64,000 nucleotides of DNA from a virus. Shown here one piece after another: positions 2,816-12,972 of this stretch (positions within the stretch are counted from its first letter, which is position 1; every line of letters begins with the position of its first letter). A model generated the notes under the pieces. That model ran no database searches and was not told the origin of the DNA. It saw nothing but the letters and a program-made list of their open reading frames with translations. The stretch lies in the IMG/VR virus record IMGVR_UViG_3300047469_000197, positions 31,131-95,130 of that record. The stretch is one strand, 5' to 3'. The position numbers and the translations under genes are program-made.

Positions 2816-3222
2816 CAGGCGGCCTGCTGGCTTGCCTGGCGCAGCAGCTGAGTAACGCGAAGATTGATCCCATTAAACCGGCGACACTCTTCCATGCGGG
2901 TGTTACCGCGGCGTTCTTCCGGGCTGGTAAGCATGACAAAGCAGGATCGCTCTTCACGTACACGCTTAGCCCTCTCTGCTTTAGGAGGCATCTCGCTAGG
3001 CTTCGGCCAGTCGCGGAAGTACAGGCGGCGAAAGCCCTGCAACACGATAACCAGATCGCCTGCCGCTTCCATTTCACGTACCAACAACCGGGCAACGGAT
3101 ACACCTTTGCCGATCGCAGTACAGATGTCCTGGATAACCAGATAGCCTTTGCGATCCATGGCGGCGCTCACCAGTTGAGTGCGCTCTGTGTACAGTTGCT
3201 TAGTAGGATTTGTGGAACTCAT
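2815..3222 (-). CDS. Putative winged-helix protein
   Basis: HTH-like IQDICTAIGKGVSVARLLVREMEAAG; coupled to next gene. Confidence 0.55.
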   Translation of the reverse strand: MSSTNPTKQLYTERTQLVSAAMDRKGYLVIQDICTAIGKGVSVARLLVREMEAAGDLVIVLQGFRRLYFRDWPKPSEMPPKAERAKRVREERSCFVMLTSPEERRGNTRMEECRRFNGINLRVTQLLRQASQQAA

Positions 3223-3548: not shown

Positions 3549-4048
3549 TAACGGTTGCTCTTAAGACGCCAGCACAAGCCCGCGCCGGTTTCACGGCTAA
3601 CCAGCGCAAACTCTTCGGCCAGCTGGTAGCTGATGGATTCGACCAGGCTGTCGCTTTTGGGCATCAACCTGGGGGAGTGGGCTTCAGGCATGCCACAATG
3701 CGTCATGATTTCGCGTGTACGCTCCCATACGGGGCGCATGATGTTTTCGGGTAGCCAGTACCAGAACGTTCGGCCAGGCTCTGCACGGGAATGGATCTCA
3801 TCGCTGCGGAGGTGCTGCATATCCACCAGCGCACGTAACCTGGTCAGGCTTTGTGATTCACCTAATCCACACTGGAGGTGTTTACGGTTAGCGGCCAGCT
3901 GGCGGATCGCGCGTGGGAAATGGTCCTCACTGGCCATGCTCACGCGTTCGCCGACATAGCGCTGGATGGCACGATAGGGAAGGTACTTAATGGTCTGGCA
4001 GAAGATGGCGTGCATCAGCGCGTCGTCAGTCACTTTCATCATAACCAC
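3548..4048 (-). CDS. Hypothetical phage protein
   Basis: 166-aa ORF in coupled operon. Confidence 0.6.
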   Translation of the reverse strand: MVMMKVTDDALMHAIFCQTIKYLPYRAIQRYVGERVSMASEDHFPRAIRQLAANRKHLQCGLGESQSLTRLRALVDMQHLRSDEIHSRAEPGRTFWYWLPENIMRPVWERTREIMTHCGMPEAHSPRLMPKSDSLVESISYQLAEEFALVSRETGAGLCWRLKSNR

Positions 4049-4846: not shown

Positions 4847-5262
4847 GGGAAACCGTGGCAGCGGCGCTGAAATTCTTCTTTGTATTGAATCGCGGTCGGC
4901 TTTTGCTGTTCGTGCCAGTGCTGGTGGCCAGCAACAAACGCGACAGGCATTGAGCTGTAAGAACTGTAATCGGTGCCTTCGCCACGTGAAGCGGCACGCG
5001 CGCCATCAAACCAGCCGGCGAGGAAATCGGCTCGATCCACCAGCTCAACGGTGAAATCATCTTCATCTCCATGAAGGCGGACGATACCCGTGCGGGATAA
5101 CTGCTCCAGCACAGCCTGATTGCCGGTGATGTCTGCGCCGGAGTAATGGCCAGCATTGTCCACGTAGGAAAAGTGGGTGTAGGGGGTCGCCTCATCCGTG
5201 CCGATCGCTCTCGCTGCAGCGGTGAAAAAGGTCATCTGTTTACGTGAAACTCTCATGGGCAT
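4810..5262 (-). CDS. Hypothetical phage protein
   Basis: 150-aa ORF co-oriented in operon. Confidence 0.6.
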   Translation of the reverse strand: MPMRVSRKQMTFFTAAARAIGTDEATPYTHFSYVDNAGHYSGADITGNQAVLEQLSRTGIVRLHGDEDDFTVELVDRADFLAGWFDGARAASRGEGTDYSSYSSMPVAFVAGHQHWHEQQKPTAIQYKEEFQRRCHGFPCVDTGEIWRQD

Positions 5263-6667: not shown

Positions 6668-7699
6668 CTACTTGCTGCGCTTCACCTCCTTGACCACGTC
6701 GAGCATGACCGACTTTTCGGCCTCGATATGGCGGATATAGCTCAGCACCTGTTCGGGCCGTTTCCACGTACCCTCATGCATGATCTGCGCGAGAGTTTTC
6801 CCACGCATAGCCATGTCCTGAGCAGCGCCCACGCGCGGGCTGTGTCCCGTCCACGTCCGATAGTGCGGCCCGGTGGCTGGTGGTTTACCCAGCGCGTTCC
6901 AGGCGCGCCCGAAGATCTTGATAACATTTACACGCGTCATCGGCTTGTCGCCCGCATGCGCGTTGTTGTAGCGATCTACCTTACAGAAAATGTACTCTTC
7001 CGGTTTGTCACGAAGCCCAGCCAGCGACAGCCAGTCGAGAACCCAGGCGGCCACTTCCGGCGACAGCGCCTTTGCAATGCTGTTGGCTTCGTCAATGGTC
7101 TTGGTAAACCCGACATCAAAAACAATCGTACCGTTTGGGCGAAACCGCAGATCACCGACCTTCAGGCGCGCCACGTTGGAGATACGCAGTAGCGAACTGT
7201 AAGCCACGCCAATGAAGGCTAAATCGCGACGATCGGCAAGGCGCTCACTGGCTTCCCATAGGGCGGAAATGCGAAACAGATCCTCAACATGCAGCGGCTC
7301 AGCCTGCGAAACTTCTTCGCCGGCACGGGTGGCGCGCTTGCGAATGGCCTTCATGCCCAACGATACATTCATGTCGTCAGACGGGCGCGGCAGGCCTGCA
7401 TGTTTGTGGAGCTTGTTAATCATGGCCATGTGCTGGTTAACGGTGCTGACTTTGCGCCCATGGTCATTTTTGAGGTGTAACAGATACTCCCGGACGTCTG
7501 CCGGAGAGGCGGGAAGCCACGTTTTTCCACGTTCAGTGCACCAGCGCGCCCATACGCGGACAACCGACAACATCTGAGTCATGGTGTTATCTGAATAGGC
7601 GTCCTGGTTCTCAAACAGGATGCGCAGATTTTGCGCTACCCGTTCATCTAAATTGTCGGGCAGCGCCATAACGCCAGTGCCGGTGTCGTTCTCGGACAT
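6668..7699 (-). CDS. cre: Cre-family tyrosine recombinase
   Basis: 343 aa; AYSDNT, WCTERG, LLRISNVARL (R), FTKT (K), WTGHSPRVGAAQDM (H-x-x-R), GTWK (W), LSYIR (Y): all catalytic residues present. Confidence 0.93.
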   Translation of the reverse strand: MSENDTGTGVMALPDNLDERVAQNLRILFENQDAYSDNTMTQMLSVVRVWARWCTERGKTWLPASPADVREYLLHLKNDHGRKVSTVNQHMAMINKLHKHAGLPRPSDDMNVSLGMKAIRKRATRAGEEVSQAEPLHVEDLFRISALWEASERLADRRDLAFIGVAYSSLLRISNVARLKVGDLRFRPNGTIVFDVGFTKTIDEANSIAKALSPEVAAWVLDWLSLAGLRDKPEEYIFCKVDRYNNAHAGDKPMTRVNVIKIFGRAWNALGKPPATGPHYRTWTGHSPRVGAAQDMAMRGKTLAQIMHEGTWKRPEQVLSYIRHIEAEKSVMLDVVKEVKRSK

Positions 7700-7701
7700 A
7701 C

Positions 7702-7914
7702 TCAGCTCTCCTTGTCGCTGGAATGATCGGTAATCTCTTGACCGTTTGCATCCACCAGCGAACGCCAGGGCTTCATGAGTACGCCATCAATAACCACGCA
7801 TCCTTTAGCCTTGTATCGTGACAACAGCTGCGGCGTCATACTATTGGCCTGAGCCATTCGTGTTAGATTGCCACCAAAATACTGCGCTGCGATCTCGTCA
7901 ATTGTCTTTGCCAT
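7702..7914 (-). CDS. Small Cro-like HTH protein (Cra-like)
   Basis: YFGGNLTRMAQANSMTPQLLSRY; immediately upstream of cre like P1 cra. Confidence 0.65.
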   Translation of the reverse strand: MAKTIDEIAAQYFGGNLTRMAQANSMTPQLLSRYKAKGCVVIDGVLMKPWRSLVDANGQEITDHSSDKES

Positions 7915-8089
7915 CCGGGCTATCCTCTTTATCCAAAACAGATAATGTTTTATCTGTTTCAGATAATATTAGAATTCCCATCGGTTTGTCACGGTAATTT
8001 TTTTGCACTATGGCATGCCGGAGCCATCACTAATCGGCGCAATAGATGGCATCTTGTTAAGTTTATCTTAACAAAAGAAATGTAGTGCC

Positions 8090-8383
8090 GTGGTAAACAT
8101 GCGTCAACTTTTAAAGGCGCATAACATGGTTCCCAAACGGCTAAAAGCAGCACGGATCGCAGCAGGATTAACACAGGAAAAGCTTGGGGTAATGGCGGGG
8201 ATTGAAGAAGCCTCAGCACGTGCTCGCATGTCATATTATGAATCCGGCACCTACCACCCCAATTTTGACACCGCCTGTCGGATTGCGGCGATCCTCGATG
8301 TACCCGAATGTTACCTTTACGCGGTCGATGACGATTTCGCGGCCTTTATCCTCACATCCTACCACCAGCAAAAACACAGCTAA
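8090..8383 (+). CDS. XRE-family HTH regulator
   Basis: KRLKAARIAAGLTQEKLG...ARMSYYESGTYHP. Confidence 0.85.
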   Translation: MVNMRQLLKAHNMVPKRLKAARIAAGLTQEKLGVMAGIEEASARARMSYYESGTYHPNFDTACRIAAILDVPECYLYAVDDDFAAFILTSYHQQKHS

Positions 8384-8794
8384 GCCAGATTTGGCGGGGC
8401 TTAATCGCCAGTTCAGCAGAAAATGAGACGTTGCTACGTGAATTCTTTTTTGGCGCGTGGGTATCAGGTCGCCAGATTTTGCGTAGCGTTACCAGGTTAT
8501 TAACATGACTGGTGGCCAAGCAAGACATTTCTGATTTACTGCAGCGGCCAAATGCATATGTGAAGCGCGCCGGGGTTAGCAATTATTTTCGGCGTAACAA
8601 ATCCACATCCCACCGGCAGAATACATACACAGGCAATAGTGTTGCATAGCTAACGCGGCCAAAAATACTTAGTGGTCGAATCGTTTCAAAAACCTTACAC
8701 ATAGACCGAAAAGCCGTCGGCAGGTGCACGGCGCACTGGTTAGACCAATCAACATGAGAAAACTTCATTTTTTGAGTGGTATCAGCCTCCTAAG

Positions 8795-8828
8795 CCAAGA
8801 TTACATATTGGATGTTATGTAATCTTGG
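8795..8828. other. lox-like recombination site (13-8-13)
   Basis: CCAAGATTACATA-TTGGATGT-TATGTAATCTTGG; perfect 13-bp arms, asymmetric 8-bp spacer, between c1/coi and cre as loxP in P1. Confidence 0.85.
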
Positions 8829-9053
8829 TTGCCGATCGTCGCATGGTAACGGTTTCATTTGGTGATTATTAGTTTCATCCCCCTTACGCTTCCCTTACCC
8901 GATTACAGGACAATTTTTACCCAACGCATAACTATTTCATTTAAACCGGACCTAATGTCCGGTAGTGCCGTGGTTAATCACTATTTGAAATGATATATAA
9001 GGCCATTCCGAAAAAGTGTTAAAAGTAACAATATAATTTGACGAGCTGACAAG

Positions 9054-10259: not shown

Positions 10260-11759
10260 TTAGTCCTTGAGCCAGTCCAGCGCCTCATTACGGCGGCTCT
10301 CATCGGCCCTGCTGATCACCTCGTTCGCCGGGATGTAATCTGCCAGTTGAGTAAAGCAGAAGGTATCCCAGTGATCGGGCGATTTCAGGTTAAGCTTCGC
10401 CCTCATCTGCTCTTTAGGCATGCACACCCATTGGCCTGCCTCATTGAGAAATACCGGGATTTTGCTCGCCTGGTCAGTGGTTTTCCCGCCCTTATCAAAT
10501 TTCATACGGCCCTGTCGCACGGCGTTGGCCGCATAGACGTTTGCATATGCACGCTGGTTGATGAACCGCTTACGCAGCTCTTTGTTGTGAAGCGGGAAGC
10601 CCCATCGGATGCGCTGCGCAATCACGCCGTGCTTCTCTTCCAGTACGTCCGCCGTTGTGGCACCCACGCCATCTCCATCGATAACAATCGTGATGTTCGG
10701 GTACACCTCCGGATCACATTCGCTGTAGATGTAGTCCGCGAAACGTGACGGGGTCACGGTGGATTCCATTTCCAGCACCTTAAATGGCACCACGCGCCGG
10801 TGTTTTCCGTAGCCACTGATGCGGAATATTGAGAGTACCGACTTATCGCGACCGTTACCCACGTCGCAGCACGCCACCCAGCCCCAGCCCTTAGCCAGGT
10901 ATACATTACGCCGCATTGCGCGATCGCAGTCGTCACGGCCCAGCAGGAAGCCGGATATGGAGGATGGGAACTCACCGCGCACCTTGATGAGGTATTCCGG
11001 ATTCTCCCGCCCGCCGTAGTCCACCAGCTTTTCCCGGATGAACTGCAGCGTAACCAGTGGCGACTCTTCGCTGTTGAGGCGGATCGCCCTATAGATGCCG
11101 TTCGGGTTCTCCGGAGTGACAGCCAGGCGGTGATGTGAGTCATAAAACTCCCCGCTGGTCCGCGTGGGCTGCGAGATGAGCAACAGGCGGTTATCTTCCT
11201 GCGTCAATGCGCCCTTGATGAAGCCAAACGCCTTATCTGATACGCCGGATGCCTCATCGATAATGTAAAGCAGGTGTTCGGCGTGTTCGCCGGCTAGCGC
11301 TTCTTCGTTACCCAAGCGGAAGCCTTTGGGCACCACTTCCCATGCACCCTTAGACTCGGTGGCGAAAAACATCATGTCCGTGAGCGTGAAGTACTGATTC
11401 AGCCACGGGAAGCGCTTAAGGCAGACTTTCCAGTTTTCACGGAGGTACTTGAATATCCCCGTCTTAACCTGCTGCAGCTTGTTCGCCACGATAATGACGC
11501 GGGCGCCGGGGAAGAACAGCATGTAGCAGAGAATCATGATTGAGGTCATATCTGACTTTCCGGTACCGTGTCCGGAGGCGACCGTGGTCTTACTGCCTCC
11601 TTCCTGTACGGCCTCAATAATCATTTCCTGCTGCCATGTCGGGATCTTGCCAAACATCACTTCTGCGGCGCTGATCCAGTCGTATCGGTACAACAGAACC
11701 AGCTCCTGCCAGCGCGGGTCATCTAATACCGAGCGCTTAGCCTTATTGCTGGTGGCCAT
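10260..11759 (-). CDS. pacB: Terminase large subunit PacB
   Basis: Walker A SGHGTGKS, Walker B YIIDEASG, nuclease [11 protein letters not shown] and KSPDHWD. Confidence 0.95.
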
Positions 11760-12972
11760 CGTCTACATCTCCATACAGATGGTTGTTAATCTCTTCGTCC
11801 GGCTCTTCACCATCAGCAAAGTCCGGCATCAGGTTCAGGTCATTCAGTGAGCCGTCAGCGGACACGTCACCCGCCCCCATGTCGTCCACAATCACGTTGA
11901 CGGCTTCCCGCTTCTCGGCCAGCGTGATTTCTAACTCGGCCATACGTGTGGCGCGCTGCTCACGTGCGCGGCGATCCAGCTCTGCCAGGTCAACAGGCTG
12001 TGAGTTAATGTCTTCTCCTGCCCCTTCTTTCATCTCTGCGCGGGCCAACTCCAGCAGCAGAGAAGGAACTTTGAAGCCGTTCGCCTCGATGTAGATGGCT
12101 GTTTCCATGGCGGTCCACTTCTCTGCCTTGCGGCGTGCGTAAGCCTCCATCACACGCTCTGGCTCTGAGAGTTTGCGCAGGTGGAGCTGCTGTTCGCGTT
12201 GGTCTTTGGAATAGCTCTGGCGGAGTCCGGCCATGGTGCGGGCGGTATCGTTGATGCTGGCTGCGGCTGCAGCGAGAACGGAAACGGCTTTGTTGATGGT
12301 GGGCGGCTCATCCTCGCCGGGTACGTGTTCTTCCAGGTGGGCGAGCATTTCAGTAACCGCGCGCTCAAGGGCAAACTGATTAACGAGGGCGCTGCGTATC
12401 ATTCTCGCCTCAATGTCATCGACACCGGCGCGGCTCATCAGCGCCTCGGCTTCCGCGAGATCGTTGTCGTCCGGGACGAGGGCACCAACCAACACCTGGC
12501 CGCCAGCTTTACTCTGATCACCGGCGCGCCCCGACTTGGTCTTTTTGCCGACAACATCCATCAATTGTCCCGTGAGCACACTCGCGGGCGTTTCAGCACC
12601 GGGGGCCGTGTCGCGTGCCTTGGCGGCGCGCACCTGCTCACTTAACGCATTGATTTTACTGGCGGTGGTTTCCCGCTCGCCCACTGAGGTTTGATCACGC
12701 TTGTGATCAGTTTTGCTTTTGCGATCAATTGATCGCGGAGGTGTTTTTGATCGCGAAACTGATCGCGGGGCTGTTTTGGAGGCAGATTTAGCTCCCACCT
12801 GACTGGTTCCCACGCCCAGGTTACGGCGGGCTGTGCCGTGATTTAAATCATATAAATCAGCATATTCCTTTATCGTAACGTCCTGCTTCTGCCTCATCTG
12901 GGCTAGGCGTTCTCTGTGTTCATTCCAGTCCGTTTTCACTTCGCGATCACCGTCTATTACTACGTTGATCAC
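11743..12972 (-). CDS. pacA: Terminase small subunit PacA
   Basis: N-terminal HTH ([18 protein letters not shown]), acidic C-terminus, overlaps pacB, internal GATC cluster. Confidence 0.85.

Follow-up and report, generated by a model that had tools for sequence, protein, structure and literature searches.

A perfect 13-8-13 palindrome is very probably the native lox-type site of a divergent Cre-family recombinase in a P1-like phage-plasmid

We analysed a 64-kb stretch of viral DNA (hereafter the window), which corresponds to bases 31131-95130 of a 95,130-bp IMG/VR virus record and which encodes a Cre-type tyrosine recombinase with a 34-bp lox-type palindrome upstream of its gene. Judged from its sequence, the 95,130-bp record is a P1-like phage-plasmid. 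Read in the orientation of cre, the locus carries pacA, pacB, a divergent C1-like gene, about 500 nucleotides (nt) of non-coding DNA, the palindrome, a gene of the HTH_3 (helix-turn-helix) family on the opposite strand, an open reading frame (ORF) of 70 amino acids (aa), here called orf70, and cre itself (Table 1). The palindrome consists of a left arm, CCAAGATTACATA (8795-8807), an asymmetric 8-bp spacer, TTGGATGT (8808-8815), and a right arm (8816-8828) that is the exact inversion of the left, all 13 of the 13 positions being complementary. It lies 1,095 nt from the cre start codon. An earlier note on this DNA had reported an intact 343-aa Cre homologue 1.1 kb from a site at 8795-8828 with exact loxP geometry and in a position equivalent to that in P1. 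We found that the site sequence, its coordinates and its geometry were correct, that the recombinase ORF is uninterrupted and the gap as described, and that the order pacA, pacB, C1-like, site and cre is the same as in the P1 record.

Table 1. Features of the recombinase locus, in window coordinates (strand: +, as presented; -, complementary;., not stranded).
Feature	Position	Strand	Remarks
Cre-type tyrosine recombinase, 343 aa, intact	6668..7699	-	catalytic R172, N175, K200, H286, R289, W312, Y321
70-aa ORF (orf70)	7702..7914	-	abuts cre start; 59% identity to Pantoea plasmid counterpart
17-4-17 imperfect palindrome	7929..7966	.	divergent promoter region between orf70-cre and HTH gene
HTH_3 (Cro/CI-type) regulator	8126..8383	+	divergent from orf70-cre; 67% identity to Pantoea homologue
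lox-type site	8795..8828	.	perfect 13-8-13 palindrome, single copy; homologous/analogous sites in relatives
C1-like prophage repressor homologue, 300 aa	9333..10235	+	28% identity to P1 C1, E 2e-33; phrog_1678
pacB-type terminase subunit	10260..11759	-	61% identity to P1 PacB
pacA-type terminase subunit	11743..12972	-	phrog_1711; internal TGATC[AG] hexamer cluster

Apart from the palindrome at 8795-8828, the window contains no perfect inverted repeat of 13-nt arms separated by 0-20 nt. Forty dinucleotide-preserving shuffles produced no perfect repeat of this kind and, with up to one mismatch allowed, 0.05 on average; perfect 13-8-13 repeats are expected about 0.001 times in 64 kb. Similarly, the site is single-copy across the 95,130-bp record, even allowing up to 3 mismatches. 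A search for isolated half-sites with up to 2 mismatches found none beyond 8795-8828, and accessory arm-type repeats are absent. The site thus has the composition of a simple 34-bp target, in which 13-bp inverted repeats enclose an asymmetric 8-bp spacer and which occurs once, near the gene and free of arm-type accessory sites. The idea that the palindrome merely occurs by chance near a recombinase gene therefore has a negligible probability: the expected count and the shuffles, together with a homologous site in a related plasmid (described below), rule out such an origin.

The product of the recombinase gene contains a Phage_integrase domain (PF00589, E 8e-16) and an N-terminal SAM-like domain (PF02899, E 5e-6). 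When it was compared with solved Cre structures in the PDB by phmmer, residues 12-336 aligned with E of about 1e-73, and this homology is already decisive for the predicted recombinase fold. By tblastn, the protein shares 38.5% identity with P1 Cre and 42.9% with Dre of phage D6; in a multiple alignment, its identity to P1 Cre is 37%. Residues R172, K200, H286, R289, W312 and Y321 correspond to R173, K201, H289, R292, W315 and Y324 of Cre. The seventh active-site position, Cre E176, is occupied by asparagine (N175), the sole deviation among the catalytic positions. We found asparagine at this position in relatives of 94% and 73% identity, the latter from Enterobacter hormaechei, and also in a separate clade that includes proteins of Xenorhabdus, Yersinia ruckeri and Plesiomonas. 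In Cre itself, asparagine and threonine were the strongest replacements of Glu176, with high activity in vitro (Gibb et al. 2010, PMC2943603). Because asparagine recurs in natural lineages and E176N is highly active in Cre, N175 provides no argument against activity.

To judge whether the palindrome is the target of this recombinase, we gathered 108 loci that encode its relatives, drawn from IMG/VR, from GTDB genomes and from plasmids and phages, and scanned the 2.6 kb upstream of each recombinase gene for 13-8-13 inverted repeats. As a positive control, the scan recovered loxP 419 bp upstream of P1 cre. An upstream 13-8-13 site with an inner A-N-A/T-N-T core was present in about 90 of the 108 loci, mostly 50-450 bp from the gene and in a few cases 0.6-1.9 kb away. 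Elsewhere in the approximately 900 kb of these loci, palindromes were few and lacked the A-N-A/T-N-T core. Among the nearer relatives, plasmids of Citrobacter freundii and two viral contigs, all with recombinases of 52-53% identity, and a further viral contig at 50%, each carry their own perfect or near-perfect 13-8-13 site 0.2-0.6 kb upstream. In a quick maximum-likelihood tree (IQ-TREE), the window's protein and these relatives form a 13-row clade with an SH-aLRT (Shimodaira-Hasegawa-like approximate likelihood ratio test) value of 100. All five of the sites known in this clade, which represent four site types, deviate from the TAACTT arm pattern that dominates elsewhere in the family. Distant relatives with Vibrio-type sites have very different arms and an inner AGA/TCT.

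The closest relative for which DNA was compared is a plasmid of Pantoea sp. CCBC3-3-1 (NZ_CP034366.1), whose recombinase is 60-62% identical to that of the window. Its site reads CCAAGGCAATATA / spacer / CCAAGGCCATATA, with the second arm given as its reverse complement. The spacer is identical to the 8-bp spacer of the window and points the same way with respect to cre; the outer CCAAG, too, is common to both sites. The arms differ between the window and the plasmid at four of the 13 positions, namely 6, 7, 8 and 10: positions 6, 7 and 10 are altered alike in both Pantoea arms, and position 8 is altered in both but to different bases. Since three of the four changes occur alike in both arms, dyad symmetry has largely been kept. 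The Pantoea plasmid also has the same orf70 and HTH cassette as the window, but its site lies 1.9 kb from the recombinase gene, with an extra gene in between. When window positions 8650-8980 were compared with positions 2860-3200 of the Pantoea locus (L110), the DNA on the c1 side aligned, and the alignment on the cre side failed directly after the site. The alignment ends exactly at the site, which therefore marks a mosaic boundary, as would be anticipated if recombination takes place there; related elements with the same spacer may possibly have exchanged modules by site-specific recombination.

The genes around the site match this picture. P1 has the same order as the window, pacA-pacB-c1-(coi, imcBA)-lox-(cra)-cre, and the order is again the same in D6, which is a P1-like phage-plasmid too and has its recombination site between c1 and the recombinase gene. 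In the direction of packaging, the cre/site module follows pacAB, and it occupies the interval from the c1 immunity region to the ref/early region. Within pacA, seven TGATC[AG]-type hexamers cluster at 12692-12765, 207-280 nt into the gene, which matches the position of pac in P1; from this P1-like geometry, the cluster is a candidate pac site. It lies about 3.9 kb from the palindrome, and the counterpart distance in P1 is 3,994 bp. In P1, the presence of lox within the terminal redundancy of the first headful lets Cre circularize the phage DNA. If this phage is a headful packager as well, the distance of about 3.9 kb would likewise place the palindrome in the terminally redundant part of the first headful. 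Circular plasmids of 96-99 kb that encode relatives also have terminase, Ref and ParM.

Together, these results indicate that 8795-8828 is, with high probability, the native lox-type site for the Cre-family recombinase whose gene lies at 6668-7699 on the minus strand of a P1-like phage-plasmid of about 95 kb. The pair is very probably cognate because about 90 of the 108 loci have a similarly placed site, because the same scan recovered loxP, and because the Pantoea plasmid has a homologous site with an identical spacer. The sequence features, homology, synteny, conservation of the site and symmetric co-variation of its arms were observed directly, and the earlier note's proposal of a natural recombinase-target pair is supported both by the like sites upstream of most relatives and by the homologous Pantoea site. 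Homology with Cre/loxP further suggests how the pair would bind and cleave DNA, whether it would need other factors, and what biological role it would have. Each 13-bp arm would be bound by one recombinase monomer, and two occupied sites would synapse into a tetramer. Tyr321 would then cut at either edge of the 8-bp spacer, the cuts being staggered by 6 bp, strand exchange would proceed via a Holliday junction in the absence of accessory factors, and the asymmetric spacer would set the direction of the site. In the life of the phage-plasmid, the recombinase would be predicted to circularize the infecting, terminally redundant DNA at the site and to resolve plasmid-prophage dimers before partition.

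Several observations weigh against this assignment. The site lies 1.1 kb from the gene rather than the 0.1-0.45 kb seen in most relatives, and a second, imperfect palindrome at 7929-7966 sits at the distance usual for the family. The symmetric arm changes, together with a stable predicted RNA fold (-17 to -21 kcal/mol, z about -4 to -5), also fit a stem-loop. Conservation of the site is drawn mainly from the one relative with 60-62% identity, and binding and recombination are predictions made from sequence. It could therefore be asked whether 8795-8828 is instead an operator or an RNA stem-loop of a c1- or HTH-region transcript, while the recombinase acts elsewhere, for example at 7929-7966. 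The latter can be read as a 13-8-13 repeat with 2 mismatches, about 230 bp upstream of cre, and a hairpin would explain the symmetric arm changes at 8795-8828 just as a dimer-binding site would. However, 7929-7966 lacks the A-N-A/T-N-T core of the roughly 90 family sites, is better described as a 17-4-17 repeat, and overlaps a predicted promoter between two divergent regulator genes; on the Pantoea plasmid, its place is taken by an imperfect 13-5-13 repeat of different sequence. In contrast, the site at 8795-8828 has exact lox geometry, the family core, and a spacer that is identical in the relative and loxP-like in the same orientation, and a terminator scan found no T-run terminator at this palindrome. 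We consider it very unlikely that the palindrome is an operator or stem-loop and the recombinase acts elsewhere.

Assuming that 8795-8828 is the target, we compared it with the sites of characterized systems. Cre/loxP of P1 belongs to the same family over the full length of the protein and shares with the window pair the 13-8-13 geometry, the inner ATA/TAT and the placement of the site between c1 and cre. The two differ in that the proteins are only 37-38% identical, in that K43, R259, E262 and G263 of Cre are T, V, I and K in the window's protein and E176 is N, in that loxP is 0.42 kb from its gene as opposed to 1.1 kb, and in that a Cra homologue is missing from the window. The window arm has 7/13 mismatches to loxP, matching it at positions 3, 4, 7 and 11-13. 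The six bases at the centre of the spacer are TGGATG, one base removed from the TGTATG of loxP and oriented in the same way with respect to cre. Two features reported for active sites (PMC10250229) are also present, namely T at position 7 and A-T-A beside the spacer.

Dre/rox of D6 is the closest characterized system, with a recombinase of 43% identity that also has lysine at the position of Cre G263. Against the two rox arms of the D6 record, the window arm has 4/13 and 5/13 mismatches. The T-T-A at positions 7-9 is common to both, and positions 2, 5, 6 and 10 differ, plus position 1 in one arm; the spacers differ as well. Thus, the arm agrees with loxP at 6/13 positions and with rox at 8-9/13. 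The earlier note had stated that only the inner ATA/TAT was kept, and so had overstated the divergence. Several uncharacterized natural sites of the TAACTT type, such as that of the Pantoea sp. C3 plasmid pC3_2, are closer still, at 3/13 mismatches. Residues K43, R259 and G263 of Cre discriminate loxP from rox (Karimova et al.; Jelicic et al., PMC10250229). At these positions, the window's recombinase has T, V and K, and Dre has R, P and K. At the position of Cre E262 the window's protein has isoleucine instead of the glutamate of Dre, and this isoleucine is unique among 108 locus-derived and 24 aligned proteins, except for the 94% relative, which shares it. On the quick tree, the window's protein falls in a well-supported clade separate from Dre. 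The arms and the residues at the specificity positions (T/V/I/K) are unusual within the family.

These comparisons make a new specificity of the window pair plausible from the sequence. As a tentative possibility, which we rate below an even chance, the 13-row clade would represent a separate specificity class of which this member would be cofactor-free and fully orthogonal to every characterized Cre-type system. If so, the clade would offer a natural series for how residues 43, 259, 262 and 263 recode arm positions 2, 5, 6 and 10.

A different outcome, which we consider rather unlikely, is that the pair is cognate but weak, dependent on a helper (the orf70 protein or a host factor), or cross-reactive with systems of the rox or pox type. 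Such a limitation would be in keeping with the asparagine at position 175 in place of the usual acidic residue, and with orf70, which abuts the cre start and is conserved alongside cre in the Pantoea relative. It would also be in keeping with published experience: of about 500 Cre-type pairs predicted by Jelicic et al. (2023), eight were validated, and approximately half of the predicted pairs that were tested were inactive and some were weak (PMC10250229). With respect to cross-reaction, the window arm is 4-5 mismatches from rox and 3 from several TAACTT-type sites. Dre recombines a site four mismatches away from rox (PMC10250229). The arms of pox, the site of Panto, are one base off rox (PMC4957104), and Panto is promiscuous, recombining rox and, weakly, loxP. 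Because Dre and Panto are promiscuous, some cross-reaction with these systems may occur. On the other side, E176N is highly active in Cre and asparagine recurs at this position in two natural lineages; same-clade relatives of 50-53% identity do without the orf70/HTH cassette and yet have a site beside the gene; and no accessory arm-type repeats surround the window's site.

The window pair resembles many described systems in its organization. YR1-YR12, the approximately 500 predicted pairs, Vika/vox, Nigri/nox, VCre/VloxP and SCre/SloxP all combine a Cre homologue with a nearby palindrome of 13-15 bp arms and an 8-bp spacer. The published discovery pipeline searched +/-1 kb around each gene (PMC10250229). 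The 1,095-nt gap falls just outside that range, so such a pair may have been missed. A full-text search of the literature for the arm sequences returned no relevant paper; the approximately 500 predicted pairs of PMC10250229 lay outside this comparison and could include the pair. Searches of IMG/VR with an exact or degenerate pattern of the site gave no match in one case and one chance match in another. A single scan of metagenomes gave 16 matches, which we judged to be chance because none of the contigs carried a recombinase motif. Megablast of the 4-kb region returned no phage match, and plasmids gave only a 155-bp stretch inside the recombinase gene.

If the pair is active and orthogonal, it would give multiplexed genome engineering an additional independent channel, for uses such as lineage tracing, genetic circuits or intersectional genetics, and would be a further starting point for the directed evolution of designer recombinases. 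Judged from its sequence, it is a plausible additional engineering tool, although its family has been a source of such tools before. A module for cyclization and dimer resolution is to be expected in a P1-like phage-plasmid, so the pair changes no concept. The graded natural series of sites that leads from the window phage, by way of the Pantoea and Citrobacter plasmids, to a viral contig with a recombinase identical to one of Nissabacter could help to decode how Cre-type recombinases recognize DNA.

The segment between the site and cre forms a small regulatory cassette. We found no family match for orf70 and no similarity to P1 Cra; the ORF is probably co-transcribed with cre. A predicted sigma-70-like promoter on the minus strand overlaps the 7929-7966 palindrome, which is probably an operator. 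The program-made ORF list starts the HTH gene at GTG 8090, but the alignment with the Pantoea homologue begins only at residue 13, so that the start is probably ATG 8126. The HTH_3/orf70 cassette is kept in the Pantoea plasmid relative and missing from the 50-53% relatives, and its position between site and gene accounts for the gap of 1.1 kb compared with 0.42 kb in P1. In P1, cre is transcribed from several promoters that are controlled by Dam and C1. The cassette suggests a repressor control of cre that differs from this multiple-promoter arrangement.

Three further observations concern the record and the wider family. The ends of the 95,130-bp record are a perfect 127-bp inverted terminal repeat, a length that resembles an assembler k-mer. 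Both ends of the contig probably fall at copies of an inverted repeat, such as one flanking an invertible tail-fibre segment as in P1, and the record may thus lack a segment. In a contig of a Rhodospirillales metagenome-assembled genome (L109), perfect 13-8-13 copies at 3852-3885 and 5213-5246 flank a distant Cre-like gene (29% identity). Their spacers are reverse-complementary; recombination between two copies inverted in this way would flip the segment that holds the recombinase gene. Finally, the Pantoea sp. C3 plasmid pC3_3 (L045:3802-3835) and about a dozen other Pantoea loci have arms one or a few bases from loxP, and the recombinases paired with these sites are only about 40% identical to Cre. 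A like observation has been published for YR4/lox4, where very different proteins can act on nearly the same site (PMC10250229).

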